Part shown: in pieces, positions 2,349-60,802 of the stretch
Layout of the letters: every line of letters begins with the position of its first letter
How positions within the stretch are numbered: position 1 is the stretch's first letter
Source of the DNA: an uncultured delta proteobacterium
GTDB lineage: Bacteria; Desulfobacterota; Syntrophia; Syntrophales; UBA2185
Direction of reading: 5' to 3'
Length of the DNA stretch: 64,000 nt
Assembly (NCBI GenBank): GCA_963729715.1
Contig: CAVSPA010000004.1
Coordinates: 64,001 to 128,000, forward strand
Made by a program: the position numbers and the translations under genes
The notes under the pieces: generated by a model
Seen by the model: only the letters and a program-made list of their open reading frames with translations
The model's database searches: none
Told to the model about the DNA's origin: nothing

Positions 2349-2441
2349 TAGTATTATTGGCATCTTAAAGTTGAGTCGATATTCAGCGTGGAAGACTTAA
2401 TTTAAGAGATATATAGTGCCTGCATGAAGCAATGCCTTTAA

Positions 2442-2476
2442 ATCAGGGGAGTGTGCAAGCTCCCCTGATCTGTTTA
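2442..2476 (+). terminator. Probable intrinsic terminator after the pilin gene
   Basis: 10-bp stem ATCAGGGGAG/CTCCCCTGAT followed by CTGTTTA. Confidence 0.6.
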
Positions 2477-2562
2477 TACTCCCTTTTGAAATGTGAAGAC
2501 AACGTCTGTTCAACAAGCCCTTGTCGGATTAATTTTTATGCTTTGTTCCCACGTATCAGAAG

Positions 2563-4704: not shown

Positions 4705-4745
4705 CAGGTATTACAAGAACCTTGACGATGATGGTTTTTGGTTTT

Positions 4746-4806
4746 CGCTCGCGCTCAGGCCCCTTCGCGGGGGCAACGAGCGTAAAGCCTCCGGCTTTGC
4801 CGGAGG
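4746..4806. repeat. GC-rich hairpins between convergent genes (REP-like or bidirectional terminator)
   Basis: Perfect CCTCCGGC-TTT-GCCGGAGG at 4788-4806, plus GCCCCTTCGCGGGGGC nested within CGCTCG..CGAGCG. Confidence 0.55.
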
Positions 4807-4816
4807 ATATTTACTT

Positions 4817-5065
4817 TTAAGTATTTGATGTAGACAATGGTACGGCTACAAGTTCTCCCGTAGCTTCGTTGACTATGGATATCTGGCCATTATCCTCTTT
4901 CTGCAGTTGCTCATTAGCATTCAGGAGTTCAATGCCATAGACTGTTCCGTCCGGGGCAATATCGACGATCAACTCATCGCTGATTTTGACGGATTCTACT
5001 TCTTTGCTTTTCACCTTGAAACGAATATAAGCAATGTTATAGCGCGGATCATAACTGAATCTCAT
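4817..5065 (-). CDS. DUF2283-family protein (putative antitoxin)
   Basis: MRFSYDPRYNIAYIRF...IVDIAPDGTVYGIELLNA signature; follows a DUF4258-like ORF. Confidence 0.75.
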   Translation of the reverse strand: MRFSYDPRYNIAYIRFKVKSKEVESVKISDELIVDIAPDGTVYGIELLNANEQLQKEDNGQISIVNEATGELVAVPLSTSNT

Positions 5066-5079
5066 AAATTATCTCCTTT

Positions 5080-5300
5080 TTAGAAAAACCGAGTGACAAC
5101 TGTTACTACGAGCCATGCATCAATTTCTTGAACAGCGTAAACCTCAACCTGCTTTGTGTTATAATATCGACCAAGTCTCTCACTGTTGAATGGAAAGTTG
5201 CGCCTGAATCCTGTTCGTCCATGTTTAGCGGGGAAACTTTCATCACATTCTACCGTCGCCATGACTTCCTCAATCTTTGCTCCACGTTCTCGAATTCGAT
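5080..5300 (-). pseudogene. DUF4258-like (putative toxin) gene, 5' end apparently disrupted
   Basis: ERGAKIEEVMATVE...PAKHGRTGFRRNF...WLVVTVVTRFF resembles the family, but the upstream frame runs into a hairpin repeat without a clear start; only a 60-aa ORF (5080-5262) remains. Confidence 0.5.
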
Positions 5301-5309
5301 AGCGAGCGC

Positions 5310-5407
5310 ATGCCGCGTAGCGTGCTGCGGGGTAAGCGAGCGAATGACGAACGGGACTGTTCCTTAAGAATCGAAGATTCTCCGCGGCTTGCCACGGAGA
5401 GCTTCAA
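5310..5407. repeat. Double-hairpin REP/MITE-like element
   Basis: Hairpins CCGCGTAGCGTGCTGCGG (5313-5330) and TCTCCGCGGCTTGCCACGGAGA (5379-5400). Confidence 0.5.
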
Positions 5408-5435
5408 CAGAATTTTCACTGGTTCAGAGAAATCA

Positions 5436-5750
5436 CTATAAAATTTTCAGCCTCAGCAACTTTTTCATAGTTTCATAGACATCGACTTTCGCCCCTTCTT
5501 TTCTGATACCCACGGCGATGACCATAACCATTATTGTCTCTGTCTTTACCTCATAGATAACTCTATAGCGGCCGGCGGCATGGATAGTGCGGAACCTGGC
5601 AAGGTTGCCGGATAGCTGTTTTCCGTGTGTATCCGGTGACTCTTTCAAGCTTTCAATCTTGCGGGAGATGACGGTTCTTGTTTTGACATCGAGAGTGCCG
5701 AGGTATTTTTTTGATTCATCAGAGAGGATGATTTTATAGGTCAATGGCAA
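5436..5750 (-). CDS. Type II TA toxin, RelE/ParE family
   Basis: YKIILSDESKKYL...GKQLSGNLARFRTI...YRVIYEV...VIAVGIR; overlaps the upstream antitoxin. Confidence 0.85.
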   Translation of the reverse strand: MPLTYKIILSDESKKYLGTLDVKTRTVISRKIESLKESPDTHGKQLSGNLARFRTIHAAGRYRVIYEVKTETIMVMVIAVGIRKEGAKVDVYETMKKLLRLKIL

Positions 5751-6006
5751 GCTCCTTTTTTGCAGTATCCCAATCTGTCACACGTCCGAATTTAATATCA
5801 TTCACTGCTTTTTTCAGAGATTTCATGAGGACGGGATCATTCAAGATAGCCATTGTTTCGTTCAGGGATTCGTAAAAATTCCAGGACATAAGCGCAAAGA
5901 CCTGTTTCCCCCGGGATGTTATTGATATGGTTTCATCCGGTCCGATTTCTTTGTGTAATTCATTTAATCTTCGCCTCGCTTCAGATATTTGAATTTGTCT
6001 GATCAT
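5734..6006 (-). CDS. Type II TA antitoxin, Phd/YefM family
   Basis: ISEARRRLNEL...ITSRGKQVFALMS...YESLNETMAIL; GGAGG RBS. Confidence 0.85.
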   Translation of the reverse strand: MIRQIQISEARRRLNELHKEIGPDETISITSRGKQVFALMSWNFYESLNETMAILNDPVLMKSLKKAVNDIKFGRVTDWDTAKKELAIDL

Positions 6007-6040
6007 TTTATTTAGCGCCTCCTTTCTTAAGGGTCTTTTA

Positions 6041-6069
6041 TTTGTACATCTAAAGAACTCTTAAATCAA
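6041..6069 (-). promoter_or_regulatory. Putative sigma-70 promoter of the TA operon with overlapping TGTACA palindrome
   Basis: Minus strand TTGATT-N17-TACAAA; TGTACA (6043-6048) is the operator core known for YefM-type antitoxins. Confidence 0.4.
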
Positions 6070-6215
6070 GCTGAAAAAAAGACAATTAAATCGAAGCAAA
6101 ATGGGGACGTTTATTTGGACATCGCAGCTATAAGCAATACCGATTAAATAGTTGCATTTCAGCTCCTCAAGCCAATCACTTTCCCCTTGAAGTTTTCAAC
6201 GTTTCAGAATATTTT

Positions 6216-6767
6216 ATGATCATGAGACTGTTCCGAAGAAAAGCCAATAAGGACAAAGGATTTACCATGATCGAACTGGTGGTGGTTTGTGTTGTGCTTT
6301 TAATCTTCACCATGGTTGTTTGGAGTACATATCAATATAGTAATGCAATCACAGACAAATTGATAGCCGAGACGGACGGATTAAAGGTGAGCCTTCGATT
6401 TGCGCAGATGCAAGCATTTAATAACGATACGGCCCCATGGGGGATTTCCTTTTCAACTAATACAACTTACAGACTTTATGCGAATAATGTTGATGCATCA
6501 ATGACGATTCCTGTTAAGGGCCAGACGAATGATTCAGGGGACCCAGTTACGCTCGCATGTCCGCAGAACTGTCATCAATTGTCAGGAAATGTGCAAATAA
6601 CATCTACGGTGCCAATAATTAATTTTGATAAGTGGGGGAGGCCTTTAGATGGTGCAGGTAATCTTTTGACGCAGGATACGCCGATAATGCTTGCTGTAGT
6701 AGTTCAAGGTCAAGTAACTGATACGTATACATTTAATGTCAGCAAAAACACGGGGTTCATTTATTGA
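6216..6767 (+). CDS. Minor pilin, FimT/GspH-like
   Basis: KG|FTMIELVVV; SLRFAQMQA; INFDKWGRP. Confidence 0.8.
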   Translation: MIMRLFRRKANKDKGFTMIELVVVCVVLLIFTMVVWSTYQYSNAITDKLIAETDGLKVSLRFAQMQAFNNDTAPWGISFSTNTTYRLYANNVDASMTIPVKGQTNDSGDPVTLACPQNCHQLSGNVQITSTVPIINFDKWGRPLDGAGNLLTQDTPIMLAVVVQGQVTDTYTFNVSKNTGFIY

Positions 6768-7606
6768 TGCGCCGTAAGATCATTAATCAATCCGGTTTCA
6801 CGCTCATCGAAATCATAGCAACCGTTGTTATCTTGGCGGCTTTCAGCGCCATGATGCTGATGTTGTTTTCTGATTCGTTGATAACAAGCAGCGGTAACAT
6901 GATGAGGACATCGAAATCTTCTGACCTCAGCAATGTGATGGCGAATATCTATGCGGATTACAGGCCGTATCCGGTATGGCAACCGTCAACAAATTATTCT
7001 TCTACAAATCCTACAAGTAAAATATTTCCAAGGGGTATGAATGGCCGGTTTTACATATGCAAGCCAGGCAGTAGCGGTACAAGCGGCCTATCGGAACCGA
7101 CCCAATGGAGCGATTCAGGAGATACACCGGATAACCAGGTCACCTGGAATGCGGGTGTATGGCAACCATCAACACCATATAACGTATGTGATATCGTCAT
7201 TCCAAGAACTCCCAATGGCCATTTCTATCGATGCTGGCAACCCGGAATGAGCTGCGGAACTCCTTGTGGTACAAGCGGCCTCCTAGCCAATGAGCCATCT
7301 TGGCCTACGATAAATGGAGACCCTTCGTCGTTGACCGATAACACGGCTCAATGGATGGAGCTCCTCGTATATCTGAATCAACAAATTGGTACGGCTGATT
7401 CAGCTAAAAAAATTACTGGTTACGGGCAATATTATGTTCTTGAGAATAGGTTCGTCTACTTTGATAACAACAATGTAATACAGCCTATCAATGCGGGTGC
7501 CCCCCAGAACATTCTTGAAGTAAAGTTACAAAGCGTTGGGACAAGTTCTGTTGGTACTGATTGCCCCGGAGAACAGATACTGACAACCCTTTTCACAGCT
7601 TATTAG
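6764..7606 (+). CDS. Minor pilin (PilV/GspI position) with two internal Trp-rich repeats
   Basis: SG|FTLIEIIATVVIL; two VWQPST-x-Y...NG-x-FY-x-C...GTSG...EP..W repeats. Confidence 0.8.
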   Translation: MMRRKIINQSGFTLIEIIATVVILAAFSAMMLMLFSDSLITSSGNMMRTSKSSDLSNVMANIYADYRPYPVWQPSTNYSSTNPTSKIFPRGMNGRFYICKPGSSGTSGLSEPTQWSDSGDTPDNQVTWNAGVWQPSTPYNVCDIVIPRTPNGHFYRCWQPGMSCGTPCGTSGLLANEPSWPTINGDPSSLTDNTAQWMELLVYLNQQIGTADSAKKITGYGQYYVLENRFVYFDNNNVIQPINAGAPQNILEVKLQSVGTSSVGTDCPGEQILTTLFTAY

Positions 7607-7613
7607 ATGGTCT

Positions 7614-8219
7614 ATGAAGAAAAAAAAACCCGATAATCATGGATTCACACTGATTGAAATTATTGTGTCGATGGTCGTACTCGCCATTCTTGGTGTGATT
7701 GCTGGGAGAGGAATGGTGGAAATGGCAAGTGGATATGTGTTGTCAAAGAAGAACGCCACAGTGGCACAACTGGGACAAATTACCGTAGATAGACTTAAGG
7801 AGGAATTTTCGTCAATCCAGTCTATTACATGTGGTGGGCCAAGTATTATTACATACAGTATCCAGAGAAGTGCTGCGGAAGGATATGTTCAATCATCGGT
7901 ATACTTGGTCGGCGGGAATAACCCCACGCTATATTTATTAACGCCTGGTTGTACCGATTGCACATCATGTATAGGCGGTGACAAATTGGCAGATAGTATC
8001 AGTAACTTCACCTTGAGTTACTGCAACACCCCTTCTATTACAACAACTGCAAACTGTTCAGCGACATTCCCTAATAGTCCTAATTTTTCACAAGGGACGC
8101 TTTCGTTTGTAAAATTTACATTAAAACTGACCGGGTATGGCCCCACACCAACAAGCATGGCCACAATATCGGTAGCCAATCCAGATATTGTCTTTTTGAA
8201 TCTGGAGTCAGGGAGCTGA
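7614..8219 (+). CDS. Minor pilin, PilW/GspJ-like
   Basis: HG|FTLIEIIVSMVVLAILG; several Cys. Confidence 0.8.
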   Translation: MKKKKPDNHGFTLIEIIVSMVVLAILGVIAGRGMVEMASGYVLSKKNATVAQLGQITVDRLKEEFSSIQSITCGGPSIITYSIQRSAAEGYVQSSVYLVGGNNPTLYLLTPGCTDCTSCIGGDKLADSISNFTLSYCNTPSITTTANCSATFPNSPNFSQGTLSFVKFTLKLTGYGPTPTSMATISVANPDIVFLNLESGS

Positions 8220-21903: not shown

Positions 21904-23847
21904 TTATCCCGGCCACGTCTCGGTATTTTTCGCGTGCCGCCCATACCAAACCTGGAAGACGATGAGGTTCCATATGTGCCACGATGTATCAACCCTGTTC
22001 GACATCAGATTATTTACAAGCTCCTTGATGACAGCGTAATCGAAGATGCCCTGCCGATCTATAATGTCCTCGGAGAGATGATCCTCAATCAGATATCTCA
22101 AGTCCGTCTTGAGCCATTTGCTGATAGGCATCTCGAATCCCCATTTAGGCCGGTTGTGCAGGGAAGGGGGCAGAATATCCTTGAATGTTTCCATTAGGAC
22201 GTATTTGCTTTTGCCTTTTCGTAGTTTCCAGTCCCCCGTCATGGAAAAGGCTAATTCGCATACCCTGTGGTCCAAGAGGGGCACGCGTACTTCGAGAGCG
22301 TGAAACATACTCATGGCATCCACCTTTGTGAGCATATCGCCGGGAAGGGATTGTTTGAGATCGGCATAAAGCATGCTGTTTATATGGTCGTTCCGCAACT
22401 CATTCAATCTGGATGCCGTCAGTTTCATGCCGAGGTCATAGTCCGTAGTTTTCGAATCGTGCAGAATCACTTTTCTCAAATCACGGGAGAAAATTTCATT
22501 CCAGGTGAAGAAGCGCTCGGCAAAGGTGTCTTTTGCACCTCTCAGAAATTTCTTTGACCTTCTGACATATTCAGAAAGTTTTTCATCGCGTGAGTCGGAA
22601 AGAGACATCAAGAAGGGTTCTATAAATTTCTTTCTGATGAAAAAAGGAAGCAAACGATACCTGCTATACCAGTCTTCACCTTTATACATTCTGTAGCCGG
22701 CAAAGAGCTCATCGCCGCCGTCGCCTGAGAGGGCAACCTTAACCCCTTTTCGAGTCTCCCGGGATACAACAAAGGTTGGCACTGCGGAAGAGTCGCCGAA
22801 AGGCTCATCGAACGAAGCGAGCACCTGTGGGACCGCTTCCAGAATATCCTTAGCGTCGAGCTTGATCTCGTGGTGGTCGGTCCCGTTCATTACTGAAACG
22901 TCCCGCGCGTAATCTGTTTCGTCAAACAGGGGCATGTCTTTGTAGCCGATGGTATATGTCTCGACCGGTCTGCTCGAATTCCGGGCCATCAGCCCCACGA
23001 TAATGCTTGAATCAATGCCGCCGCTGAGGAATGCGCCGAGGGGGACATCTGCGATCATCTGCATGCAGACCGCCTCTTCCAGCGTTTTGAAAAGCTCGCG
23101 TTTGCAGGCATCGAAATCCATCTCCGTACTTCGTACGCGGGGATTCAGGTCGATATTCCAGTACGCGTCTTCCCGCACTTCTCCATTCTGAAAAACGAGA
23201 ATGTGGCCGGGGTTAAGTTTTCTAATGTTCTTGAAAATTGTATAGGGTGCAGGAATATAATTAAACGTCAGGTAGAGATTTAGGGCGTCCCAGTCCATCT
23301 CGCGGTTGACATCCGTATCCTCAAGAATCCCTTTGATCTCTGAGGCAAAGATGAGAGTATTGCCGTCCCACGAATAGACGAGGGGTTTGATGCCGATATG
23401 ATCCCTGCACATGAGGAGCATTTGCTTTCTTTCGTCCCAGAGCGCAAAAGCAAACATCCCGACGAGCCTCTTCACACAATGGACGCCTTCCTCTTCGTAA
23501 AGATGGATTATGGCCTCAGTATCTGTATGAGAATGGAAGCGATGGCCCTTGCCTTCGAGTTCCGTGCGCAGGGATTGAAAATTGTAAACCTCGCCGTTGA
23601 AGACAAGCCAGACACTCTTATCTTCATTACACATGGGCTGCCTGCCCGCCTCGGACAGATCGATGATGCTGAGCCTTCTGTGACCGAGGCCTATCTTCAC
23701 GCGCGAGCCAATAGCCGCGTCACGCGTATTCGTGTAAGTCCCGTCTGCGTCAGGGCCGCGGTGGGAAAGGACGGAAGTCATTCTACGAAGCGCGACTTCA
23801 TCTATGGGTTTTCCATCTATTCTCAGTTTCCCGCAGATTCCGCACAT
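21904..23847 (-). CDS. asnB: Asparagine synthase (glutamine-hydrolysing) family amidotransferase
   Basis: MCGICG, HRGPD, FNGEVYN, LSGGIDSS, SGDGGDELFAGY. Confidence 0.93.
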   Translation of the reverse strand: MCGICGKLRIDGKPIDEVALRRMTSVLSHRGPDADGTYTNTRDAAIGSRVKIGLGHRRLSIIDLSEAGRQPMCNEDKSVWLVFNGEVYNFQSLRTELEGKGHRFHSHTDTEAIIHLYEEEGVHCVKRLVGMFAFALWDERKQMLLMCRDHIGIKPLVYSWDGNTLIFASEIKGILEDTDVNREMDWDALNLYLTFNYIPAPYTIFKNIRKLNPGHILVFQNGEVREDAYWNIDLNPRVRSTEMDFDACKRELFKTLEEAVCMQMIADVPLGAFLSGGIDSSIIVGLMARNSSRPVETYTIGYKDMPLFDETDYARDVSVMNGTDHHEIKLDAKDILEAVPQVLASFDEPFGDSSAVPTFVVSRETRKGVKVALSGDGGDELFAGYRMYKGEDWYSRYRLLPFFIRKKFIEPFLMSLSDSRDEKLSEYVRRSKKFLRGAKDTFAERFFTWNEIFSRDLRKVILHDSKTTDYDLGMKLTASRLNELRNDHINSMLYADLKQSLPGDMLTKVDAMSMFHALEVRVPLLDHRVCELAFSMTGDWKLRKGKSKYVLMETFKDILPPSLHNRPKWGFEMPISKWLKTDLRYLIEDHLSEDIIDRQGIFDYAVIKELVNNLMSNRVDTSWHIWNLIVFQVWYGRHAKNTETWPG

Positions 23848-29470: not shown

Positions 29471-30838
29471 GGATCATCTGACTTTTTTGTACAAAGAAAC
29501 AGGCATAAGTACCTGTAACGCTTTTATAAATGTTCTTTGAAAATTGACACGTTTTCTAATCTCGGATAGAGTAGTTAGATGAAAACGAAAAATACACTCC
29601 GAGACCTGTATAAATTTCCTGGATTCCGTGCCCGTGCCACGCTGAAGCCACACCCGGAAGATCCTGAAGGATGCATTGTTACCCTGGAGCGCCGCCAAAA
29701 AAAACAGTCTGTTCCGGCTGCGGTACAACGGCATCAAGCTATCGGGACCGGCGAACTCATAGGGTGCGAGACCTGGATGCCGGAGCAACCCGCATCTATC
29801 TTGACTTCGAGTATCGCAGGGTTGCCTGCCCGCATTGCAAAGCCGTGAAACGCGAGACTCTTTCAATGCTGGCCAAGTCGTCCCGGTTCACTCAGCGGTT
29901 CGAAGACCGCATTGGACTGCTCTGTCGCGAGATGAGCATCAAACGTGTTGCAGAGCTTAACAACCTGAGCTGGGACCAGGTATGTCGCATGGAGAAGGGT
30001 TACATGCGTCGCCTGCTGGAGCAGCATCCGCCTTCCGCACAGCTTCGGACCATTGGCATCGATGAAATATCGACCCGTAAGGGCCACACCTATGCCATCG
30101 TTGTCGCCGATCTTGACCAGAGACGACCGATCTGGCTGGGTGGACAGGGTCGCACCGAACAGGATTTACAGTTGTTCTTCGACACCATGGGGCCTGAGCG
30201 CTGCAAGACAATCGAACTGGCGGTCATGGATATGTGGAAGCCATTTCGTAAAGCAACGCTGAGTCATGCTCCCAACGCACAGATTGTCTATGACAAGTTT
30301 CACATCACGCGTCATCTGGCAGACGCCCTTGATCAGGTCAGACGCAGCGAGTACAAACGTGTCAATGAGAAAGAACGTCGGTTCATCAAGGGGCAGCGCT
30401 ATACGTTGCTGTCCCATAAAGCCAATTTAGATATTGAAGGCCGACGGGCCTTGCAAATGCTGTTAAAAGCAAACAAACGGCTTCATAAAGCCTATCTGTT
30501 GAAAGAATCGTTCGGGCAACTCTGGGATTATAACAACCCAACATGGGCACGAAAGTTCTTTGAAAGCTGGAAAGACCAGTTGCGCTGGCAGCGGCTTAAA
30601 CCCTTTGAGAAGTTTGCTGCTCTCATTGAGCGTCACTGGGACGGAATCATCAGTTACTGCCATCCTGATCACAAGGTTTCACTTGGATTCATGGAAGGCT
30701 TGAATAACAAGATCCGCGTCATCCAGCGCAGAGCATACGGCATTAAGGATCAGGAATACCTGATGCTCAAAGTTATAACTTCCTTTATCAAAGAACCGAA
30801 ATAGAATTAAATTTATGCACAACAAACCCAGAAGACCC
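29471..30838 (+). mobile_element. ISL3-family insertion sequence (1368 bp)
   Basis: Ends GGATCATCTG / CAGAAGACCC (imperfect inverted repeat); 8-bp target duplication CATATTTC at 29463-29470 and 30839-30846. Confidence 0.93.
29579..30804 (+). CDS. ISL3-family transposase; needs a -1 shift at the A8 run (29697-29704)
   Basis: Zn finger CSGC..CPHC, IGIDE, MDMW, YDKFH, EGLNNKIRVIQRRAYG; N-terminus MKTKNTL...ERRQKK lies in the neighbouring frame. Confidence 0.88.
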
Positions 30839-35031: not shown

Positions 35032-36027
35032 CTATAAATCCTTCATTTTCTTTGCGAGCCACTCTTCATCTTTTGTCTCTTGGATAACGCGTAGAATACG
35101 TGCCGGCATAAAGTGCTTGACGATTCTTCGTACAGACCAATACTTATCCCTTTCCTCGCACCTGTTGCATATAAAATCGGGTGGCAAATTGCGGCCATCG
35201 TAGATTTTTTGCAGAGTCTCGAGGAATCGGTCGCCATTCCATACTTCATCTATGGTTGAGCTGCTTAAGTTGCCTAATATGATCTCTTGCGCCATGTCAT
35301 GGCAGCACAGGAGAACGTCGCCCTTAAAGGATACCACCATTTCATAGAATGGTCTTTCGGTGCGGCATCCTGAAATCCTTCTTCTTGGGACCATATTAAT
35401 CTCGCTGACGAGTCCAGCCCTCGACAAGGCCTTATCTATGATTACGGTTACATTCCTGGATCGCCAGAAAGAACGCATTTTGTTTTCTTCATCAGAATCC
35501 CAACCAAAAGAAACAGCATTTATGCGGATTCTGTTTGTGGGGAATTTCTTTAATAGATAGTCAATATTCTTCATGGTCGTATCATAGTCCAGATGCATAA
35601 TGCTCTCGTAGGTCTTGCGGCTTATTCCATGAAAACTGATATTGAAAAATCCATTAAAACCGATTTCAACGAGAGAATCCACAATGGCAGGAACCAGAAG
35701 CGATGCGTTGGTATTGAAATAGATATGTATATTCCTGTCCATGGCATACTTGGCCCACCTTGCAATGTCTTTTAAAATAAAAGGCTCACCCATTTGGCAA
35801 TATCCCAGGACGCCTGTGAAATCGTGTCGATCCATCAAGCCTTTATAATCATCTATAATTTTTGTATATAAGTCCCATGACATGAAACCCATAGGGTTCA
35901 CTTTGCTCAGTTGGGGGTAAGGGCAGATCCGGCAACGCGCATTACAATAACTGTGAAGATCAAGCAGGAGACTGCTTGGATAGGGGCGACGTTTCGATAA
36001 TTGTCCTTTGAGATGCTGCATCATCAA
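35032..36027 (-). CDS. Radical SAM protein with SPASM/twitch C-terminal domain
   Basis: CNARCRIC; GEP; C...GDVLLCCHD...LGN......IDEVWNG...CNRC. Confidence 0.88.
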   Translation of the reverse strand: MMMQHLKGQLSKRRPYPSSLLLDLHSYCNARCRICPYPQLSKVNPMGFMSWDLYTKIIDDYKGLMDRHDFTGVLGYCQMGEPFILKDIARWAKYAMDRNIHIYFNTNASLLVPAIVDSLVEIGFNGFFNISFHGISRKTYESIMHLDYDTTMKNIDYLLKKFPTNRIRINAVSFGWDSDEENKMRSFWRSRNVTVIIDKALSRAGLVSEINMVPRRRISGCRTERPFYEMVVSFKGDVLLCCHDMAQEIILGNLSSSTIDEVWNGDRFLETLQKIYDGRNLPPDFICNRCEERDKYWSVRRIVKHFMPARILRVIQETKDEEWLAKKMKDL

Positions 36028-52687: not shown

Positions 52688-54130
52688 TCAAGGCCTTTTT
52701 AATTTTTTTTCAGGTGACGGTAAAAAGCTGAAAATATGGGAAACGATCTCCCGTACACGGGCTGTATAGTATGATTTCAGGGTTACACCGTCCCTGACAC
52801 AAAGTCTTTGAAGAAGTATTTGGCGAGGCGGGAACAAAGTCCTGAATAAGAATTTGATCTTATCGGAGAGTGTTCTATTCATGGCCAGGTAAATAAAATA
52901 GCTGCTGCCCCGGATGCGGCGGTTGGTAGTCTGGAGTCTCAGGAAGAATCTTTCACCGAGAGATAAATCCGGCGGCGTCAGTTTCCTCGGGCTTTCTTCA
53001 GGTATAAACGCTCTTGCATAGGCCTTAACGATGGAGAGGCTGAGATAGACCAATCGGTCCAGATTAAAACGGCGGCTTTCTTCGACAAGTAAATCCCAAT
53101 CAATATTTTTTTCATAGGCTTTAAGGGCGTAGGATATATCCGTTATGAGTATGAGGCGATCGAAGGAGTGGCCTATCCTGAGGGCGTGTTCGCAGAGATA
53201 GATGATAAGGTGTTCGGGGCATAACATATATACGTCGGCATCTGCCACCCTCGCGGGAACCGCCTTTTCCCATATGCGCCCGATATCGACATGTTTGGCA
53301 AACATCGTTGCTGGCACTGAACTGTTTACTATGTGCCAGTGAACATGAAGATTTAAGGGGGAGCCATTTTCTTTTCGGTATTCGAGGCTGGCAAGATAGC
53401 CTTCCGGATTGTTTATGGCCCTCGCAACGGAACTGTCTCTTGCGATATATCCCTGAGAGGACAAGAGCTCATCGACATCATAGAGGTCAGTTTTCTTGAC
53501 CAGAATATCGATGTCTGACATTCCCCTCATCGCGATGGCGGGATAGATGTGTTCCGCAAGGGCTATGCCTTTAAGAACAATGCAGAGGATCCCGGATTCC
53601 TTAAGAAGGGTGAGGATACTTTTCAACTCACCGATGATGGAAAGGTTTCTTCTTAGATTGTTGTAATACTGTTCGGATAGCGCAGCTCTGACTGCCGGGG
53701 GCACGAGATGTTCCGCTTTGTTATTTTTTAAATTGTGAAATATTGTTTCGACAACGCCCTCCTGCCTCATCTTCACAACAATATAGTCCCAGTCGTACTC
53801 CGTGCTATCCTTTGCATACAAAGAGAGAGATTGATTTTTGGAATCCAACTTCTGTAACCTTTGCACAACTCCTCTATTTGTCATTCCGGGCTTGACTCGG
53901 AAATTGGAGCATACTTCTTGATAATACTGGATTCCCGCTGGAGCCGGTCCTCGAATGTCCTTATCGGGGACGGGAATGACAAAATTGCTGGTCTTAAGCA
54001 GTTCTGAAAAGGTCTCCTTCTGTGAGTCCTTATTAGGTAAGTCAAAAAGGAGACTTAGGATTAATTTGTCGCAATCTTGGCAGTTGATGGCAAAGCTCCG
54101 CTCTCTAAAGTCACGGCTTCTCGTAAACAT
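52688..54130 (-). CDS. Nucleotidyltransferase family protein (NTP_transf_5-like) containing an in-frame MITE
   Basis: LKGIALAEHIYP, RGMSDIDILV, LHVHW, YLCEH motifs. Confidence 0.85.
   Translation of the reverse strand: MFTRSRDFRERSFAINCQDCDKLILSLLFDLPNKDSQKETFSELLKTSNFVIPVPDKDIRGPAPAGIQYYQEVCSNFRVKPGMTNRGVVQRLQKLDSKNQSLSLYAKDSTEYDWDYIVVKMRQEGVVETIFHNLKNNKAEHLVPPAVRAALSEQYYNNLRRNLSIIGELKSILTLLKESGILCIVLKGIALAEHIYPAIAMRGMSDIDILVKKTDLYDVDELLSSQGYIARDSSVARAINNPEGYLASLEYRKENGSPLNLHVHWHIVNSSVPATMFAKHVDIGRIWEKAVPARVADADVYMLCPEHLIIYLCEHALRIGHSFDRLILITDISYALKAYEKNIDWDLLVEESRRFNLDRLVYLSLSIVKAYARAFIPEESPRKLTPPDLSLGERFFLRLQTTNRRIRGSSYFIYLAMNRTLSDKIKFLFRTLFPPRQILLQRLCVRDGVTLKSYYTARVREIVSHIFSFLPSPEKKLKRP
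53856..54016. mobile_element. 161-bp MITE-like element inserted in frame in the nucleotidyltransferase gene
   Basis: Imperfect TIRs AACCTTTGCACAACT / AGTTCTGAAAAGGTCTC; 7-bp direct repeat CTTCTGT at 53849-53855 and 54017-54023; internal GTCATTCC..GGAATGAC repeat. Confidence 0.75.
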
Positions 54131-54263: not shown

Positions 54264-54572
54264 ATGGAAGAGTTTTTGAAGGATATCGAACTTTTGTCAA
54301 GGAATACGGATTGTATTTTCAGGGAAGAGGAAGACGGGGCCTTTCTGTTCGATCCGGAAAGCGGGAATCTTAAATTTATCAATAGCATGGGCGTTAATAT
54401 CTATCAGCTCTGCGACGGTAAAATGACTGTGGGAGACATCACATCATTGGTAAGCGAAAATTATAAAGACATTTCGAGCAAGAAGATCGAGGACGATATA
54501 AAGGTTTTTTTGCAAGAGCTTGTAAAAATGGAGTTTTTAAAAAGAGAAGAAACCGGTCATGACGGGAAATAA
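54264..54572 (+). CDS. PqqD-family RiPP recognition element (ScmD-like)
   Basis: REEEDGAFLFDPESG...IN.MG..IYQLCDG.MTV.DI...DIKVFLQEL. Confidence 0.9.
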   Translation: MEEFLKDIELLSRNTDCIFREEEDGAFLFDPESGNLKFINSMGVNIYQLCDGKMTVGDITSLVSENYKDISSKKIEDDIKVFLQELVKMEFLKREETGHDGK

Positions 54573-55641
54573 TGCAGCGTATTCGTTAAACTCCATTTAT
54601 CTTTATCTTACGGACAGATGTAATCTGAGGTGCAGGCACTGCTGGATTGAACCTCTATATTATGAAGGCCGCAAAGACGACAGCACTGAATTTGACCTGA
54701 AATTTCTCAAAAAGGCGATTGAAGATGCGAAAGAGATTGGCCTTAACCGTGTTAAGCTGACAGGCGGCGAGCCTTTTTTGAGAAGAGACATACTTGATAT
54801 CATCGCGTATCTTCATGCTCAAAACATTACAGTGGATATAGAGACAAACGGCACCCTCATAGACAAGGAGATTTGCGCAGTTCTAAAAGCTAATGGCGTT
54901 AATCAGGTATCCGTCAGCCTTGACAGCATGACGGCAGAGCAGCATGAAACATTCCGCGGGGTCAAAGGTTGTTACCATGATGCCTTGAAAGGGCTTTCAC
55001 TGCTCACAGAAAGTGGCATAAACACTCAGCTCATAATGACCCTCTATAAGGAAAATATATCGGAGATTGAAAGGCTGGTTGATCTTTCTTCCCGGATGGG
55101 TGTCGGTTCTGTTAAGATAAACCCTGTCATGCCCACGGGGCGAGGCAAGAAATTTTTTGAAAAAGAAGAAAATGTTGAGTTCGGCGATCTAATAAAGATT
55201 GACAGATGGATTGAAGAAGAATTAGTGTCAAAATACAAAATTGATATACACTTTGATATCCCCATAGGTCTTAAGTCGCTTAAATGCATAAGAACGAGAC
55301 AATTGTTCGAGTGCAATATTGTAAATATAATCGGCATACTCTCCGACGGCACAATTTCCCTGTGCGGCATCGGCCAGACGGAGACTGCTCTTAATATGGG
55401 CAACATTGCGGTAGACGATATACGTGAAGTGTGGGCAAGTAATCCCATCCTGCAGAAATTGAGAAAGGACATACCGCGCAATTTAGAGGGCATATGCGGC
55501 CGCTGCATATTCAAGTTCAGATGCCGGGGGGCGTGCAGGGCCTGTGCATACGGCTTAACAGGAAGTCTTAATAGTCCCTTCTTTGTCTGCCGTGAGGCAT
55601 ATGAAAAGGGACTGTTTCTGGAATCCAGGATGATCAATTAA
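54559..55641 (+). CDS. Radical SAM/SPASM peptide maturase (SynChlorMet ScmF-like)
   Basis: YLTDRCNLRCRHCWIEP, TGGEP, ETNG; SPASM CGRCIFKFRCRGAC (Cx2Cx5Cx3C). Confidence 0.9.
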   Translation: MTGNNAAYSLNSIYLYLTDRCNLRCRHCWIEPLYYEGRKDDSTEFDLKFLKKAIEDAKEIGLNRVKLTGGEPFLRRDILDIIAYLHAQNITVDIETNGTLIDKEICAVLKANGVNQVSVSLDSMTAEQHETFRGVKGCYHDALKGLSLLTESGINTQLIMTLYKENISEIERLVDLSSRMGVGSVKINPVMPTGRGKKFFEKEENVEFGDLIKIDRWIEEELVSKYKIDIHFDIPIGLKSLKCIRTRQLFECNIVNIIGILSDGTISLCGIGQTETALNMGNIAVDDIREVWASNPILQKLRKDIPRNLEGICGRCIFKFRCRGACRACAYGLTGSLNSPFFVCREAYEKGLFLESRMIN

Positions 55642-55660: not shown

Positions 55661-56698
55661 ATGACTCGCAGCTATGACTTGATTAAAGATAATAATAAGG
55701 GAGAGGGAGACGGGCCTCTTCGCCTGAGTGACATTGAAAACCTTAAGTCCCAGGAAGGCAAATCATACGAGACTCCGGAAGAGCGTTCAGCGCAGGATGA
55801 AAAAGAGGTTGATAATGCCGAGAGACTCTATGCGGGCTTCCAGAAATACATGCGCGATGTCAGGGAGGAGGTTAAGACCAATCAACCCATTGAGCTTGAG
55901 GCGGCATTCTCGCTGATTGAGCAGCTCACGAAATCAAGAAGTATGATGGAAAGAGTTTATCAGTTAACCAATACCTTTTACCATGGTAAGGACTACTATA
56001 TCTCTCATCCCGTAAATACAATGATATATGCCGTAAAGGTCGGGCTGCGGATGGGATATTCCCGTGACAAACTCAAAGAACTCGCTATGGCAGCACTTCT
56101 TCACGATGTAGGAATGTTTATGATTCCTGAAAATATCATAACCAAGGAAGGGGCATTGACCGAATCTGAATTGGCTCTGATAAAGAGACATCCTGAGCTC
56201 GGGAAAAATCTCCTGTTCAAGTTTAAGGATCAGTTACCCTGGCTTGCCCGCGCCGTTCATGAACATCAGGAAAGAGAAAATGGCAAGGGATATCCGAGGG
56301 GAATTAAAGGAGATGACATTGCGGAGTACGCGAAGATTATAGGCATATGTGATTCGTATGAGGCGATGACGCACAACCGTCCCCACAAGAAGGCTATCAT
56401 GCAATTTACCTCAGTGAGGGAATTGATAGAAACAAAGGACCTTCTGTTTCCCACAAAGATACTTAGAGCATTTCTTGAGGAGTTATCCCTGTATCCGATA
56501 GGAAGTTGCGTAAAATTGAATAACAATGCAATTGGAAGGGTCATTGACACCAATAAAGACCAGCCCATGAAACCGATAATCAAACTCCTTTTTGACGGCC
56601 ACGGGAATGCAGTGACTGACGAAAGGATCATAGACTTGAAAGAGAATACTGTATTGAATATTCTCGGCGGCGTGTCAGATGACGAATTGCCAGGCTAA
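55661..56698 (+). CDS. HD-GYP domain protein (cyclic-dinucleotide phosphodiesterase-like)
   Basis: LLHDVG, KRHP..G, HQERENGKGYP, DSYEAM..RP. Confidence 0.9.
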   Translation: MTRSYDLIKDNNKGEGDGPLRLSDIENLKSQEGKSYETPEERSAQDEKEVDNAERLYAGFQKYMRDVREEVKTNQPIELEAAFSLIEQLTKSRSMMERVYQLTNTFYHGKDYYISHPVNTMIYAVKVGLRMGYSRDKLKELAMAALLHDVGMFMIPENIITKEGALTESELALIKRHPELGKNLLFKFKDQLPWLARAVHEHQERENGKGYPRGIKGDDIAEYAKIIGICDSYEAMTHNRPHKKAIMQFTSVRELIETKDLLFPTKILRAFLEELSLYPIGSCVKLNNNAIGRVIDTNKDQPMKPIIKLLFDGHGNAVTDERIIDLKENTVLNILGGVSDDELPG

Positions 56699-57598
56699 AT
56701 GGAAGAACTGATTCTCTCCATAGCGGACCTTGCCATTGCCGTTCGTGCGGAGAAACACATAAAAGTTTTATTAGAACCTTTAACTAAACTCTTCAGCGGA
56801 TTTCTAAATGATGCCGGTAAACCAGCCGCGTTCCTGAATTTAACTTACGATCGTCTCCGTACATATCCGAACTTTAAAGACATGACTGTCAATGTGCTTG
56901 CGGGAAACTGCGGGGAAAGCAACGAATTGATTAATCAGGTGGGGAAAGTTTACCCGATATCAAGAGATTCTATAGTCGTCGGGTATTTAAATGGATGCCT
57001 CGCGTATAATCCGTCATCCAGTGAGGCCTGTCTGCTTCTCTTCAGGTCGCATGATCAGAACAATTTCACGGCAACTCTTCATAAGATGCTGTTCATCTTT
57101 ATTTCTTTCGTCCTGGGTGAAAGAAACAGATTCATGGTGCACGGTGCAGGAATAGGGGAGAAACAGGGTGGGGGAGGCTTTCTCTTCCTCGGCGATTCAG
57201 GTGCGGGAAAAACAACCGTTGCGGGTTTTGCCGGTGTGGATGCAGTGCTTTCGGATGACGCTCCCGTTATCGGCAAAGAAGACGGCGTTTACAACATATA
57301 TTCATCACCCTTCAGCCAAGTAAATTTGTTTGACGAAAGATCAAGCGATTACTTCCGGAAGAAGGTTCAATTAAGGAAGCTTTTGTTCTTAAATAAGGCA
57401 GATGAGATTGCGGTAACGGCGCGGCAACGACATTCCGCCCTGACGGAAATATTAACATCGCACGTGCATTCGTTTGATCTGATGGACCGGGACTTGAGAA
57501 TAGGTGCTTTTAACTTTTGCCATGACCTATGTTACAGCATACCTGCGTATGACCTCTATTTTCAGGAGAATAATAAATTCTGGGATGCTTTGAACTAA
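56699..57598 (+). CDS. HPr-kinase-related P-loop protein (ScmC-like)
   Basis: VHGAGI...LFLGDSGAGKTT...LSDD.P...SPF. Confidence 0.8.
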   Translation: MEELILSIADLAIAVRAEKHIKVLLEPLTKLFSGFLNDAGKPAAFLNLTYDRLRTYPNFKDMTVNVLAGNCGESNELINQVGKVYPISRDSIVVGYLNGCLAYNPSSSEACLLLFRSHDQNNFTATLHKMLFIFISFVLGERNRFMVHGAGIGEKQGGGGFLFLGDSGAGKTTVAGFAGVDAVLSDDAPVIGKEDGVYNIYSSPFSQVNLFDERSSDYFRKKVQLRKLLFLNKADEIAVTARQRHSALTEILTSHVHSFDLMDRDLRIGAFNFCHDLCYSIPAYDLYFQENNKFWDALN

Positions 57599-57625
57599 AA
57601 AGCTGTGATTCTGCCATGCCGTCGC

Positions 57626-57994
57626 TTAGCCGGCGCCTCCCGCCTGACATCCTCCCGCAGCGGCGCTGCCAGCCGTACACGTGCCTCCGGCGACACTGCC
57701 AGAGTTGCAACCACTGTTTCCGGCGGCGCTGCCGGATTGACATTGACCACCGGCAGCAGTACTGCCGGCATTACATTTGCTTGACGTAGGAGCGCTGCCT
57801 GTATTGCAATTGCTTGATGCGACACTGCCGGCTTGACATTGCCCGCCGGAGGCAGTGGCTCCCGAGTTGCACTGCTGTTGAGGAGATCCTCCTGCCTGGC
57901 ATTGGCTTGGCCCTTGAGCGTGAGCGACCCCGCCGCCAAGATCAAGAATTTGAGGAGGTTCATAAGGGAGCTTGAATTTGGATTTCACGTGCAT
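57626..57994 (-). CDS. RiPP precursor peptide with YxxP leader and nine C-x-x-G repeats
   Basis: GGAGGG RBS; leader PYEPPQILDLG; core of 10-11-aa Gly/Ser/Ala/Gln-rich repeats each starting C-x-x-G; directly after a rSAM/SPASM gene. Confidence 0.85.
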   Translation of the reverse strand: MHVKSKFKLPYEPPQILDLGGGVAHAQGPSQCQAGGSPQQQCNSGATASGGQCQAGSVASSNCNTGSAPTSSKCNAGSTAAGGQCQSGSAAGNSGCNSGSVAGGTCTAGSAAAGGCQAGGAG

Positions 57995-59114
57995 ATCCCT
58001 CCTGTTTCTTTTGTGACTTCATTACATCTAAGCTGTATGGGTATCCATTGCCTTTGTAGATCCTGTAGCAGGACATGGGATCAACCGTAAAAACAGAGCC
58101 AGAGAGCTCATAAGACACAGCAGGACATCCGCCGATACAGAGTGATTTGTATCCGCAGCCGCTGCATTCCTCAATATCGTCCAGGGAAACGGATGCCCTT
58201 CTTCTCATTTTGGAAAAAATGGGCGACGAAGCCCATATTTCCTGAAAATCCGTTTCCCCGATGTGGCCGGCCTTGAAATCCCACAACCTGTCACATGGAA
58301 CAACCCAGCCGTCGGGCCTGACGGTACACTTCTGGATTCCCCCTCCGCAGCCAAACAGCCCGTTCGTACATCCCGGATTGTCCCGGTCCCCTATCTTCTG
58401 AAGCTTCTCGAAGCCTTTAAAAAAGTTTCCCATGTCGAGGATCGTCCCGATTACAAAATTACCGTACGTATTTCTCAAGCGCTCTAATTTGTGCGTTAAC
58501 GCCCTTCTCTGAGAATTGGAAAGAGTGAGGTTGGGAAGATGACATACCGCGTTGCCGAGCGGCAGTAGTTCATTAAATTTCACGGCCGTCAAACCGAGGC
58601 TCTTCCCGAGAATAATAATATCTTCTATGTCCTGATAATTGTTCTTCGTGACCGTGGTGTAAGTGGAGACGTGTCTGTTATGCTTTAAAAGATTTTCGAT
58701 GCCGCGAATCGTTCGATCAAAACTGCCATTTCCCCTTTGCTTGTCATGCACGGCGGGTGATGACCCGTCGAGACTGACGACGACGCTGAACAGTTTCTTT
58801 AGCTCGGAAATCCGCCGCGATGCTTGTTCGTCGATAAGGGTGGCGTTTGTATTCAGGCCGTAATGGAAGTGGTGTTTTTCTATTTCATACAAAATGGAAA
58901 AGACATCTTCCCTCATGAAGGGCTCGCCGCCGCTGATCCAGAGTGTAAAAACCTTCAACTCGGCAAGTCTCCTGATAAACTTTATCCATTCGTCTGTCGT
59001 CAGGTCGCTCGTTGCATTGCGCGTCGGATAGACGTTGCAATGCTTGCATGCCAGATTACACTTATTGGTAATGGCGATGAAAACATCTAATGGAGCCGAA
59101 AAACAGTTCTTCAT
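57960..59114 (-). CDS. Radical SAM/SPASM peptide maturase (SynChlorMet ScmE-like)
   Basis: ITNKCNLACKHC, SGGEP, VSLDG; CGGG..C.VRPDGWVVPC; CSGCGYKSLCIGGC. Confidence 0.9.
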   Translation of the reverse strand: MKNCFSAPLDVFIAITNKCNLACKHCNVYPTRNATSDLTTDEWIKFIRRLAELKVFTLWISGGEPFMREDVFSILYEIEKHHFHYGLNTNATLIDEQASRRISELKKLFSVVVSLDGSSPAVHDKQRGNGSFDRTIRGIENLLKHNRHVSTYTTVTKNNYQDIEDIIILGKSLGLTAVKFNELLPLGNAVCHLPNLTLSNSQRRALTHKLERLRNTYGNFVIGTILDMGNFFKGFEKLQKIGDRDNPGCTNGLFGCGGGIQKCTVRPDGWVVPCDRLWDFKAGHIGETDFQEIWASSPIFSKMRRRASVSLDDIEECSGCGYKSLCIGGCPAVSYELSGSVFTVDPMSCYRIYKGNGYPYSLDVMKSQKKQEGYAREIQIQAPL

Positions 59115-59518
59115 GACGAAATGATCAGCCCCTTTCGCTTAAAGGCCATGAGGGTGAGTACGATGTCCCTTTTCGCGGCATCCTGCCCCACATCAAAACG
59201 ACCGGTAATTTCCTCTACCATATTATCGACACCGTTGGCACCGTTGCACAGGTTCCAGATATCAGCAGCAACAGCGTTTAACTTCAGCGTATCTGAGTTT
59301 TTCCTCGTATCCGTAAGGATCGTGTAGCTATCTTCTTTTCTCAGCGAGACGTCAGGATGTCTGGCAGGACTGGCGCTCAGGATTTCCTTCACTTCCATTG
59401 AATTCCAGGTGTATCGCAGATAGTCGACCATGCCAAATGACCGCACGGAGCCAGTAGCCGGCAGGAGAATACCTGCGCCAAATAATACGGACATAAAATT
59501 TCTTCTCGATGTATCCAC
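59111..59518 (-). CDS. PqqD-family RRE protein with N-terminal twin-arginine-like signal
   Basis: MDTSRRNFMSVLFGAGILL; C-terminal LNAVAADIWNLCNG...MVEEITGRFDV....AKRD. Confidence 0.8.
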   Translation of the reverse strand: MDTSRRNFMSVLFGAGILLPATGSVRSFGMVDYLRYTWNSMEVKEILSASPARHPDVSLRKEDSYTILTDTRKNSDTLKLNAVAADIWNLCNGANGVDNMVEEITGRFDVGQDAAKRDIVLTLMAFKRKGLIISS

Positions 59519-59564
59519 GACAGATTCCTCCTTTAAAGATGCGCCCGGACGGCGGCTATTCCGA

Positions 59565-60359
59565 TTATAATGAATCCTTTACCACCTTTTTTACCAAGTC
59601 CGCACTAATGGTCTTTTGTTTTGTGCTGGAGGCAATCAAAAGTGCCAGATCACAGACATTGTTTATCTTCCTCGGCACGCCTTGGGAATACAGGTATATT
59701 TCTTCTATAGAGTCGGGAGGAAATATCCCGTTGGTCAGTCCCGCTCTCTCCATTCTGTAAACTATGTATTTTGCCGTCTCGTCGGCATTGAGTGGATTCA
59801 GATGGAATCTTATGGCGATCCTCTGATCGAGTTGTTTAAATTGCCTTATCAGGTCCTTCAGCTCCGGTTGTCCGATGAGAACGAATGTCATCAGGAACTT
59901 ATCGTTCAACTGAAAGTTCAGGAGCAAGCGAATCTCTTCGAAGGTATCGGTGTGTATGAGCTGTGCCTCATCGATGATGAGCAGAGTGGTCCTGTTTTTC
60001 CTGACATTTTCGAGCAGCCGCGTATTTAATATGGCGAGAAGCTCCGTCTTTGAATTAGTCCTGACATTCAGGCCAATCTGATAGAGCACCTCCTTCAGGA
60101 AGTCCAGCGGCTCGAGCGACGGGTTTGTTATCAATCCGATCTCAAAATCCTTTTCGGGAAGCTGCTGGATGAAAACCCTGCTGAGGAGAGTCTTTCCGCT
60201 TCCTATTTCGCCCGTAAGCAGGGCTGCCCCTTTTCTCCTCTTCACGGCATAGACTAGCCTGGCGAGGGCCTCGACGTGCTCATGTGAGTAGTACATGAAC
60301 TCCGGATCAGGTACATTTTCAAACGGGAATTTCTTGAAGCCCCAGTATTCTAAATACAT
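59565..60359 (-). CDS. ExeA/GspA-like AAA ATPase (EPS-locus type)
   Basis: MYLEYWGFKKFPF..PDP; GEIGSGKT; IIDEAQ; LIGQPEL; QGVPRKIN. Confidence 0.9.
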   Translation of the reverse strand: MYLEYWGFKKFPFENVPDPEFMYYSHEHVEALARLVYAVKRRKGAALLTGEIGSGKTLLSRVFIQQLPEKDFEIGLITNPSLEPLDFLKEVLYQIGLNVRTNSKTELLAILNTRLLENVRKNRTTLLIIDEAQLIHTDTFEEIRLLLNFQLNDKFLMTFVLIGQPELKDLIRQFKQLDQRIAIRFHLNPLNADETAKYIVYRMERAGLTNGIFPPDSIEEIYLYSQGVPRKINNVCDLALLIASSTKQKTISADLVKKVVKDSL

Positions 60360-60802
60360 TTCATCAACCCATCAATTGCCATATAGATCTCTGAAAAACA
60401 GAGCCTGTACTGAAATATTGAAAGTTTGTAGGGATCCTTAATGTCCCCGTATTCTTCATTATAATCCGGAGAAAATGATTTGAGACGATGAATCTTAGCC
60501 TCCGCTTCCGGGTACTTCTCGACGATTATTTTCTTGTGGATACCCTCCATGACGATGATCATATCTGCCTGGGAGACCATGTCTTCCGTCAATAGCTTTG
60601 AATGGTGACCGGCGCCATCGAGACCGTGCTCATCCAGTATTTCAACGGCTTTCGGATCGGCAGGCATGCCATTCATGTCGGTGACGGCGGCAGAGTAAAC
60701 CTCGATACCGGGTTTTTTGTCCTTTTTCAGCCTTTCTATGAGAATCCTTTCCGCCATGAAGCTTCTGACTATATTGGCAGTGCAGACAAATAAAATTTTC
60801 AT
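60350..60802 (-). CDS. wzb: Low-molecular-weight protein-tyrosine phosphatase (Wzb-like)
   Basis: FVCTANIVRS (CX5R), DIKDPY. Confidence 0.85.
   Translation of the reverse strand: MKILFVCTANIVRSFMAERILIERLKKDKKPGIEVYSAAVTDMNGMPADPKAVEILDEHGLDGAGHHSKLLTEDMVSQADMIIVMEGIHKKIIVEKYPEAEAKIHRLKSFSPDYNEEYGDIKDPYKLSIFQYRLCFSEIYMAIDGLMKCI

Follow-up and report, generated by a model that had tools for sequence, protein, structure and literature searches.

Twin-arginine signals on a RiPP recognition element suggest a carrier role in the export of a SynChlorMet-like peptide

The recognition elements (RREs) of RiPPs (ribosomally synthesised peptides with post-translational modifications) are known to act in the cytoplasm, where they are adaptors for proteases and for modifying enzymes. 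In the SynChlorMet cassettes, delineated by the ScmC (TIGR04249), ScmD (TIGR04248), ScmE (TIGR04250) and ScmF (TIGR04251) models, two radical S-adenosylmethionine (SAM)/SPASM enzymes accompany an ScmC protein and a PqqD-type RRE, and canonical members also have Cys-rich precursors with a YxxP leader motif. The LPP clusters offer a second point of comparison: according to the main text of PMC13381572, LppA is cut by LppS in an RRE-dependent manner and in a register that places Tyr at -16 and Thr at -1. Export of hitchhiker proteins by the twin-arginine translocation (Tat) system is, in turn, established for hydrogenases (available text of PMC10924467). Here we analysed a 64,000-nucleotide stretch of DNA from an uncultured delta proteobacterium (assembly GCA_963729715.1, contig CAVSPA010000004.1, positions 64,001 to 128,000), referred to below as the window, which shares with SynChlorMet the two radical SAM/SPASM enzymes, the ScmC-like protein, the PqqD-type RRE and a precursor of the same kind, and which encodes in addition a second RRE with an N-terminal twin-arginine motif, hereafter Tat-RRE (Table 1). 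From sequence comparisons, we consider it rather probable that Tat-RRE is a Tat-targeted carrier that co-exports the peptide of its cassette, the two together making up a split signal peptide to which Tat-RRE contributes the targeting and the cargo the cleavage site.

The open reading frame (ORF) on which the original prediction was built is present with the ends listed in Table 1, its PqqD domain is matched and its GTG start is supported. Pairing with the anti-Shine-Dalgarno sequence amounts to -10.9 kcal/mol for the GTG compared with -3.0 kcal/mol for Met9, and codons 2–8 are under purifying selection (pN/pS, the ratio of nonsynonymous to synonymous polymorphism, of 0.30 versus 0.27 for the RRE among seven close homologues); codon 9 is ATT in one homologue. 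Across 42 distinct locus-derived homologues, an in-frame start is found 4 (37 homologues), 7 (four) or 5 (one) codons 5' of the motif, Shine-Dalgarno pairing reaches -4 kcal/mol or better in 41, and the residue equivalent to Met9 (motif position +3) is Met in only 18. The internal Met start that the original prediction had named as one of its refuting cases is contradicted by the pairing energies, the pN/pS ratio and the position of the start in all 42 homologues. Met9 starts are frequent in database gene calls (P0001, P0005, P0007, P0010), and the frequent loss of the tag at the hands of gene callers may be why it has been overlooked. A scan for promoters and terminators gave nothing above chance (8 promoters versus 11.4 expected).

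Tat signals carry an S/T-R-R-x-F-L-K-type motif near the true N-terminus. The S-R-R-x-F motif and hydrophobic stretch that had been noticed ahead of the PqqD fold are confirmed, the motif being S-R-R-N-F-M, as is the contrast with the other RRE (54264), which has no signal extension. Among the 42 members, the first motif position is Arg in 37 and Lys in 5 and the second is Arg in all; the residue before the pair (-1) is Ser in 29, and position +2 is Phe in 34, Leu in 7 and Ser in one. Lys in place of the first Arg is tolerated in known Tat substrates (available text of PMC1182353). Nineteen uncharged residues follow the motif of Tat-RRE, and the hydrophobic mean is at least 1.5 in 42/42 members. 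By the span of residues used, an A-x-A follows the hydrophobic region in just one of the 42, other small-residue sites being possible, which suggests that the signal is possibly an uncleaved anchor. The host genome encodes tatC, four tatA/B/E matches and one LepB, and tatC is present in 33 of 34 related genomes that carry Tat-RRE.

Because the homologue sets came from full-length profiles, the domains were ranked with a signal-less RRE profile: by RRE domain alone, [RK]-R-x-[FLS] precedes every one of the 37 best-scoring domains out of 134. The conservation of RRxF on which the original prediction had staked its reading is thus borne out for the arginine pair, both in this ranking and in the second Arg of all 42 members. 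The 32 rows of alignment A3 were picked by motif, making the invariance of R6 there circular; the fair conservation tests are the domain-only ranking and a split by length only. A home-made rule combining the RR motif with hydrophobicity, along the lines of TatFind-type logic, passes 1/97 short versus 30/38 long RRE representatives, together with 49 of 1278 long ORFs of the genome (3.8%) and 0/86 plain RRE frames.

Tat-RRE may also be equipped to recognise a leader. Pfam PqqD (PF05402) matches residues 73–132 (E 2.7e-11; 44.1 bits versus a gathering cut-off of 23.4), as it does all 32 aligned members. The AlphaFold model (mean predicted local distance difference test score, pLDDT, of 81; residues 1–26 of low confidence) has a winged fold of three strands and three helices, with the RRE fold spanning residues 57–128, and its best structural matches are the leader-bound lasso B1 RREs 6JX3 and 5V1U/5V1V. 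N81 and D118 are invariant among the aligned members and align with N33 and D70 of LppB, the positions that hold the leader Pro and Tyr. A complex prediction of Tat-RRE with the leader gave a weak score of 0.50 versus 0.02 for the best control, a value to be read with the knowledge that similar complexes have been solved and that memory of them is possible. Among 157 solved complexes, 116 attained the mark for such scores, and so did 2 of 215 mismatches; with a score of 0.60 or less, only 18 of the 157 attained it, together with both mismatches; contacts agreed by at least 77% between runs, with a partner pLDDT of at least 56. Tat-RRE and the plain RRE, the only two PqqD matches in the genome, score 26.9 and 49.8 bits, respectively, with the ScmD model (cut-off 100), and BLASTP between the two returned no alignment. 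The nearest named relatives of Tat-RRE belong to Syntrophaceae and Syntrophales assemblies; full-length members occur in several families of the order (339 class genomes), in families f58 and f79 (401-genome phylum sample), and in one representative named from Latescibacterota. Judged from the sequences, the origin of Tat-RRE may be single.

The second half of the proposed signal lies on the precursor, which no NCBIfam or Pfam model matched. A strict site of the signal peptidase I type, [AV]-[YHFQ]-A-[QDA], was found in 37/38 precursors linked to Tat-RRE; its last Ala lies 14–16 residues after the YxxP Tyr, the register in which LppA is cut. L068 and L146 represent a single gene and enter this count only once. 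Sec-type signals of the host have Tyr, His or Phe at -2 in 24/87 cases versus a background of 9%, and their ends resemble the A-H-A/Q of the precursor. None of 14 precursors from plain cassettes has the strict site, nor do three more examined by eye; plain leaders end mostly in A-x-G or similar. At 33 loci, the Tat-RRE gene stands directly before the precursor gene in 16 and further away in 15, with no precursor seen in two. Two side observations concern the precursors: a second frame of 122 codons (57595-57963, minus strand) overlaps that of the window, matches no family and is probably a shadow of the low-complexity core, and dipeptide-repeat expansions, Gly-Thr and Asp-Arg runs, follow the leader at L138:13708-14193 and L050:10096-10548.

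The Tat-RRE and the precursor site coincide with a change in gene content. Plain control cassettes, fetched by ScmC score and with plain RREs only, encode an S24/S26 protein nearest to SEC11-type signal peptidases, often together with an ATP-binding cassette (ABC) exporter, and neither a cassette peptidase nor an ABC exporter was found at 29 of 30 Tat-RRE loci. The exception is L148 (G505:C129), where a Tat-RRE cassette adjoins a plain one and the leaders of each are of the corresponding type; at this locus, the S24/S26 peptidase and the nucleotidyltransferase form a fusion. For comparison, the peptidase occurs at 26 and the exporter at 14 of 33 other loci, 15 of these peptidases and six of these exporters having seeded the profiles. 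Genome-wide, the peptidase occurs in 5/35 Tat-RRE genomes versus 18/19 plain genomes, and no cassette-type match was found anywhere in the genome of the window. In the vicinity of 17 Tat loci, Pfam scans covering another 105 ORFs revealed neither a peptidase nor a peptide exporter that was conserved; they showed sporadic transporters, an efflux set at L048 and an M29 peptidase at L060. The absence of a RiPP transporter or peptidase, part of the original reasoning, holds for the scanned genes of the window, where the sole ABC pair is Wzm/Wzt. In a ScmF tree built from 42 rows, three changes of the Tat label are required, at least two of them forced by strong branches, and one Tat group is nested among plain cassettes; the pattern therefore holds in more than one enzyme lineage.

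Surveying these loci yielded two further observations. Canonical SynChlorMet cassettes (L127-L144, L164, L216-L229) contain genes for Cys-rich YxxP precursors, up to seven per locus, and the combination of a SipW/SEC11-type peptidase with such precursors links them to LPP-type maturation. A further cassette type in similar loci of other genomes (L149-L153, L155-L157, L161-L163) has a plain RRE, a shorter S24/S26 peptidase, and ScmC and radical SAM genes that are both distant; the precursor profile found none there.

The association was also examined prospectively, in that the prediction was noted first and 20 stretches were then taken around precursor-profile matches, from genomes or contigs not chosen for Tat-RRE. 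Fourteen were plain cassettes, with the peptidase in 14/14, an exporter in 8/14 and Tat-RRE in 0/14; the strict site was present in 1/32 of their precursor frames, at least one slice ending before the end of the leader. The other six were lone precursor loci from five genomes, with five strict and two loose sites. No RRE was found near any of the six, and the prediction of a nearby Tat-RRE failed there. No cassette-type peptidase was detected in the five genomes, of which two have Tat-RRE on another contig, two have ScmD/E/F without Tat-RRE and one has neither. In G325 and G326, the system is distributed over three contigs, carrying the precursor, Tat-RRE with ScmC, and ScmD/E/F (L210-L215, L235-L240).

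We propose a route in four steps. The YxxP leader would first be read in the cytoplasm by an RRE, probably the plain ScmD-like one, for ScmE and ScmF to cross-link the Cys-rich core and for the kinase and nucleotidyltransferase perhaps to decorate it, chemistry suggested by the families of these proteins. Tat-RRE, with the fold and pocket residues observed, would then bind the same leader, and the folded complex of RRE and peptide would pass through TatABC as a hitchhiker, consistent with the conserved signal and the presence of tat genes. Finally, the leader would be held on the outer side of the inner membrane by the RRE, whose signal probably stays uncleaved and still serves as its anchor; there, the housekeeping signal peptidase I (LepB) would cut A-H-A/Q, at the motif and register observed, and free the core. 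The n- and h-regions of such a split signal peptide would reside on the chaperone and the c-region on the cargo, and the route would take the place of the ABC exporter and the SipW-type peptidase that ordinary SynChlorMet cassettes encode. LppB is insoluble and PbaB1 marginally stable without leader (main text of PMC13381572), and misfolded cargo is rejected by Tat (available text of PMC6708511); we speculate that RREs unstable without leader would let Tat proofreading pass loaded complexes only. For the full scheme, a two-gene split-signal export of RiPPs that is proofread by loading, released by signal peptidase I and present in at least two radical SAM lineages, we lean towards acceptance. 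Comparison thus favours the peptide escort put forward in the original prediction on three counts: the precursor has a site of the signal peptidase I type, the dedicated peptidase and exporter are lost, and the residues for binding YxxP are intact; the export itself is a prediction.

Several observations weigh against this proposal. The Tat-RRE protein matches neither TIGR01409 nor PF10518, and each of these models finds only 3/32 members at E up to 1, a level at which TIGR01409 also matches 13 other places in the genome; the best that Tat-RRE offers is a weak Rieske-anchor match (E 0.068). The motif arginines are nearly all encoded by AGA or AGG (second Arg 40/41 versus 44% genome-wide), a share above the 14 of 22 Arg codons in Tat signals of the host. 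As tatC is near-universal in these bacteria, its co-occurrence says little, and a single origin of Tat-RRE would mean that the counts are not independent events. By eye, the plain RRE too has Asn and Asp in matching motifs, and either of the two may hold the leader. The cut site is not confined to Tat-RRE loci: a loose A-x-A occurs in 3/13 plain precursors, and the strict site in one precursor of a cassette with both peptidase and ABC exporter (L218). Among the five Tat genomes with the peptidase, one has it in a neighbouring plain cassette and the rest on other contigs. An unlinked ABC exporter (C15, 416 bits) is encoded in the genome of the window, and cassette exporters score about 340–1060 bits, the highest being the seeds of the profile itself. 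Partners are also missing in places: in G321 and G322 (94% and 90% complete), ScmD/E/F and precursors with A-x-A are present and Tat-RRE was not found; G189 has an orphan A-x-A precursor only; in G165, Tat-RRE is present and no precursor was found; and in G038, the visible precursor has no site, a second copy being cut by the contig end.

The alternative that fares best is that the Tat signal is real and the RRE travels alone, either as an anchored periplasmic dock, which would receive a precursor brought out by a different route and offer it to signal peptidase I, or as a product receptor or immunity protein. It accounts equally well for the signal and the A-x-A site, and it could draw on the unlinked ABC exporter and on the A-x-A precursors of G321 and G322, where Tat-RRE was not found. 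We nevertheless judge it unlikely, as it requires an unseen exporter in every carrier when 29 of 30 Tat loci have none in the cassette, and as an RRE unstable without leader, like LppB and PbaB1 (main text of PMC13381572), would meet the rejection of misfolded cargo by Tat (available text of PMC6708511).

Another possibility, contained in the original prediction, is that the N-terminus is a membrane tether, or a twin-arginine remnant that is not exported, and that maturation takes place at the cytoplasmic face of the membrane. The poor fit to curated Tat profiles and the lack of an A-x-A of its own in 41/42 members would agree with this, and Tat motifs found by regular expression are often false (1/69 in B. 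subtilis; available text of PMC1182353). However, a tether does not call for an Arg that never varies and keeps a fixed spacing to the start, and one facing only the cytoplasm leaves unexplained both the change of the precursor to A-x-A together with the tag and the loss of peptidase and exporter; we hold this reading to be quite improbable.

Escort of the adjacent radical SAM enzyme to the periplasm, the Fe-S variant of the original prediction, is not supported, because no enzyme gene lies between the Tat-RRE gene and the precursor in the 16/33 loci where the two are directly adjacent. In G325 and G326, moreover, Tat-RRE and ScmE/F are on different contigs. Radical SAM chemistry requires SAM and a reductant, both cytoplasmic, which counts against export of the enzyme. 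Even taken together with the status of Fe-S proteins as Tat cargo, the overlap of the Tat-RRE gene with the ScmE-like start here and the enzyme-sized gap of 1.1–1.3 kb between Tat-RRE and precursor in 10/33 loci leave this option very improbable. Hardly credible, finally, is an artefact, with Met9 or Met41 as the true start and the RR as the in-frame reading of a purine-rich ribosome site, despite the AGA-AGA 6 nt before Met9, the nearly exclusive AGR codons, a genuine Shine-Dalgarno sequence readable as RR in three homologues (L026, L033, L036) and the Met9 starts of the databases: both the internal starts and the misread site were rejected on the pairing energies, the constraint on codons 2–8 and the start upstream of the motif in 42/42 homologues. 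A minor, shorter form of Tat-RRE may arise from Met9.

Table 1. Features of the Tat-RRE cassette and its surroundings in the window (the slash marks the predicted cut)
Feature	Position	Strand	Remarks
NTP_transf_5 nucleotidyltransferase	52688..54130	-	family match
Plain ScmD-like RRE without signal	54264..54572	+	TIGR04248, 50 bits (cut-off 100)
ScmF-like radical SAM/SPASM enzyme	54559..55641	+	TIGR04251, 347 bits (cut-off 400)
HD-GYP-type phosphodiesterase	55661..56698	+	linked in most Tat-RRE loci
ScmC-like protein	56699..57598	+	TIGR04249, weak, 24 bits (cut-off 125)
Precursor peptide, 122 aa	57626..57994	-	26-residue leader; nine Cys of core in C-x-x-G repeats; no n-/h-region
Predicted signal peptidase I site A24-H25-A26/Q27	57914..57925	-	A26 is 15 residues after Y11
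RRE-binding YxxP motif (Y11-L19) of precursor leader	57938..57964	-	motif match
ScmE-like radical SAM/SPASM enzyme	57960..59114	-	TIGR04250, 241 bits (cut-off 400)
Tat-RRE gene	59111..59518	-	135 aa from GTG; stop overlaps ScmE-like ATG (ATGA)
PqqD/lasso-B1-type RRE domain, residues 51-135	59114..59368	-	Pfam, model; N81 and D118 at the pocket positions of LppB
Two linker helices, residues 28-48	59375..59437	-	structure model
Hydrophobic region, residues 10-24	59447..59491	-	Kyte-Doolittle mean of the best 12 residues 2.3; own A-x-A absent
Twin-arginine motif S4-R5-R6-N7-F8-M9	59492..59509	-	conservation and start analysis
Shine-Dalgarno sequence AAAGGAGG	59527..59534	-	8 nt 5' of Tat-RRE GTG
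ExeA-like AAA ATPase	59565..60359	-	TIGR03015, 245 bits (cut-off 324.5); adjoins upstream at many loci
Wzb-like low-molecular-weight tyrosine phosphatase	60350..60802	-	linked in many Tat-RRE loci

The best matches to the ScmC, ScmD, ScmE and ScmF models lie within 5 kb of one another, all below the curated cut-offs. The ScmC-like protein is putatively an HprK-type kinase, its TIGR04249 match being weak. The cassette heads a long polysaccharide locus, whose sole ABC pair is Wzm/Wzt. The ExeA-like ATPase, the Wzb-like phosphatase and the HD-GYP protein accompany most Tat-RRE cassettes near wza/wzc, neighbours hinting at an envelope or biofilm role for the peptide. Elsewhere in the window, positions 10964-47526 hold a large polysaccharide locus with many methyltransferases and a carbamoyltransferase, in which an ISL3 transposase (29671-30801), a further radical SAM/SPASM gene (35035-36027) and an amidotransferase of the asparagine-synthase type (21907-23847) are also encoded, and positions 1896-8216 a type IV pilin-like cluster with N-terminal methylation motifs, beside a sigma-54 regulator.

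If the proposal is correct, carrying peptides in export would add a new function to those of RREs and a new exit route for modified peptides, and clusters lacking both transporter and peptidase would be explained. The uncharacterised SynChlorMet-type cassettes would be given their precursor, along with a prediction of where the mature peptide begins (Q27 here), signal peptidase I would act on a substrate without a membrane segment of its own, and a leader together with its carrier might serve as a portable module for secreting cyclised peptides. In agreement with the remark in the original prediction that no described example was known, a literature search covering few subscription journals found no published description of a Tat-tagged RRE or of SynChlorMet. 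Neither Tat nor radical SAM occurs in the main text of PMC13381572, and signal peptidase, Tat and Sec have no whole-word occurrence in the RiPP protease review PMC10885120. Nothing relevant to this system was found in PMC13692751 or PMC9251779.

Compared with canonical SynChlorMet cassettes, the locus has the extra twin-arginine RRE and a leader ending in A-x-A, where canonical ones end mostly in A-x-G; it lacks the SipW-type peptidase and ABC exporter, and its four model scores fall below the cut-offs. With the LPP clusters (lppA-K-B-S-D-N), as described in the main text of PMC13381572, it shares a discrete RRE, a YxxP leader, an HprK-like kinase (here putative, with a weak match), an NTP transferase and a capsule locus, as well as the logic by which the RRE presents the leader to an enzyme of the signal peptidase type 15 residues past the Tyr. 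LPP, however, has the dedicated SipW-like LppS and an MsbA-like transporter, neither of which is present here, where the protease would be the housekeeping LepB and the route Tat. The lasso B1 RREs (TfuB1, 6JX3; TbiB1, 5V1U/5V1V) resemble Tat-RRE in fold (TM-score by target 0.77–0.83) and in their Asn/Asp pocket, but have no N-terminal signal or linker and work together with a cyclase and a B2 protease, an enzyme that was not seen here. The closest precedent for the transport step is provided by the Tat hitchhiker heterodimers, NiFe hydrogenase and formate dehydrogenase, in which one partner is tagged and the untagged one crosses bound to it (available text of PMC10924467). Those partners are stable enzyme subunits, whereas the proposed passenger here would be the precursor of a RiPP, gripped through the leader and released at a peptidase site of its own.

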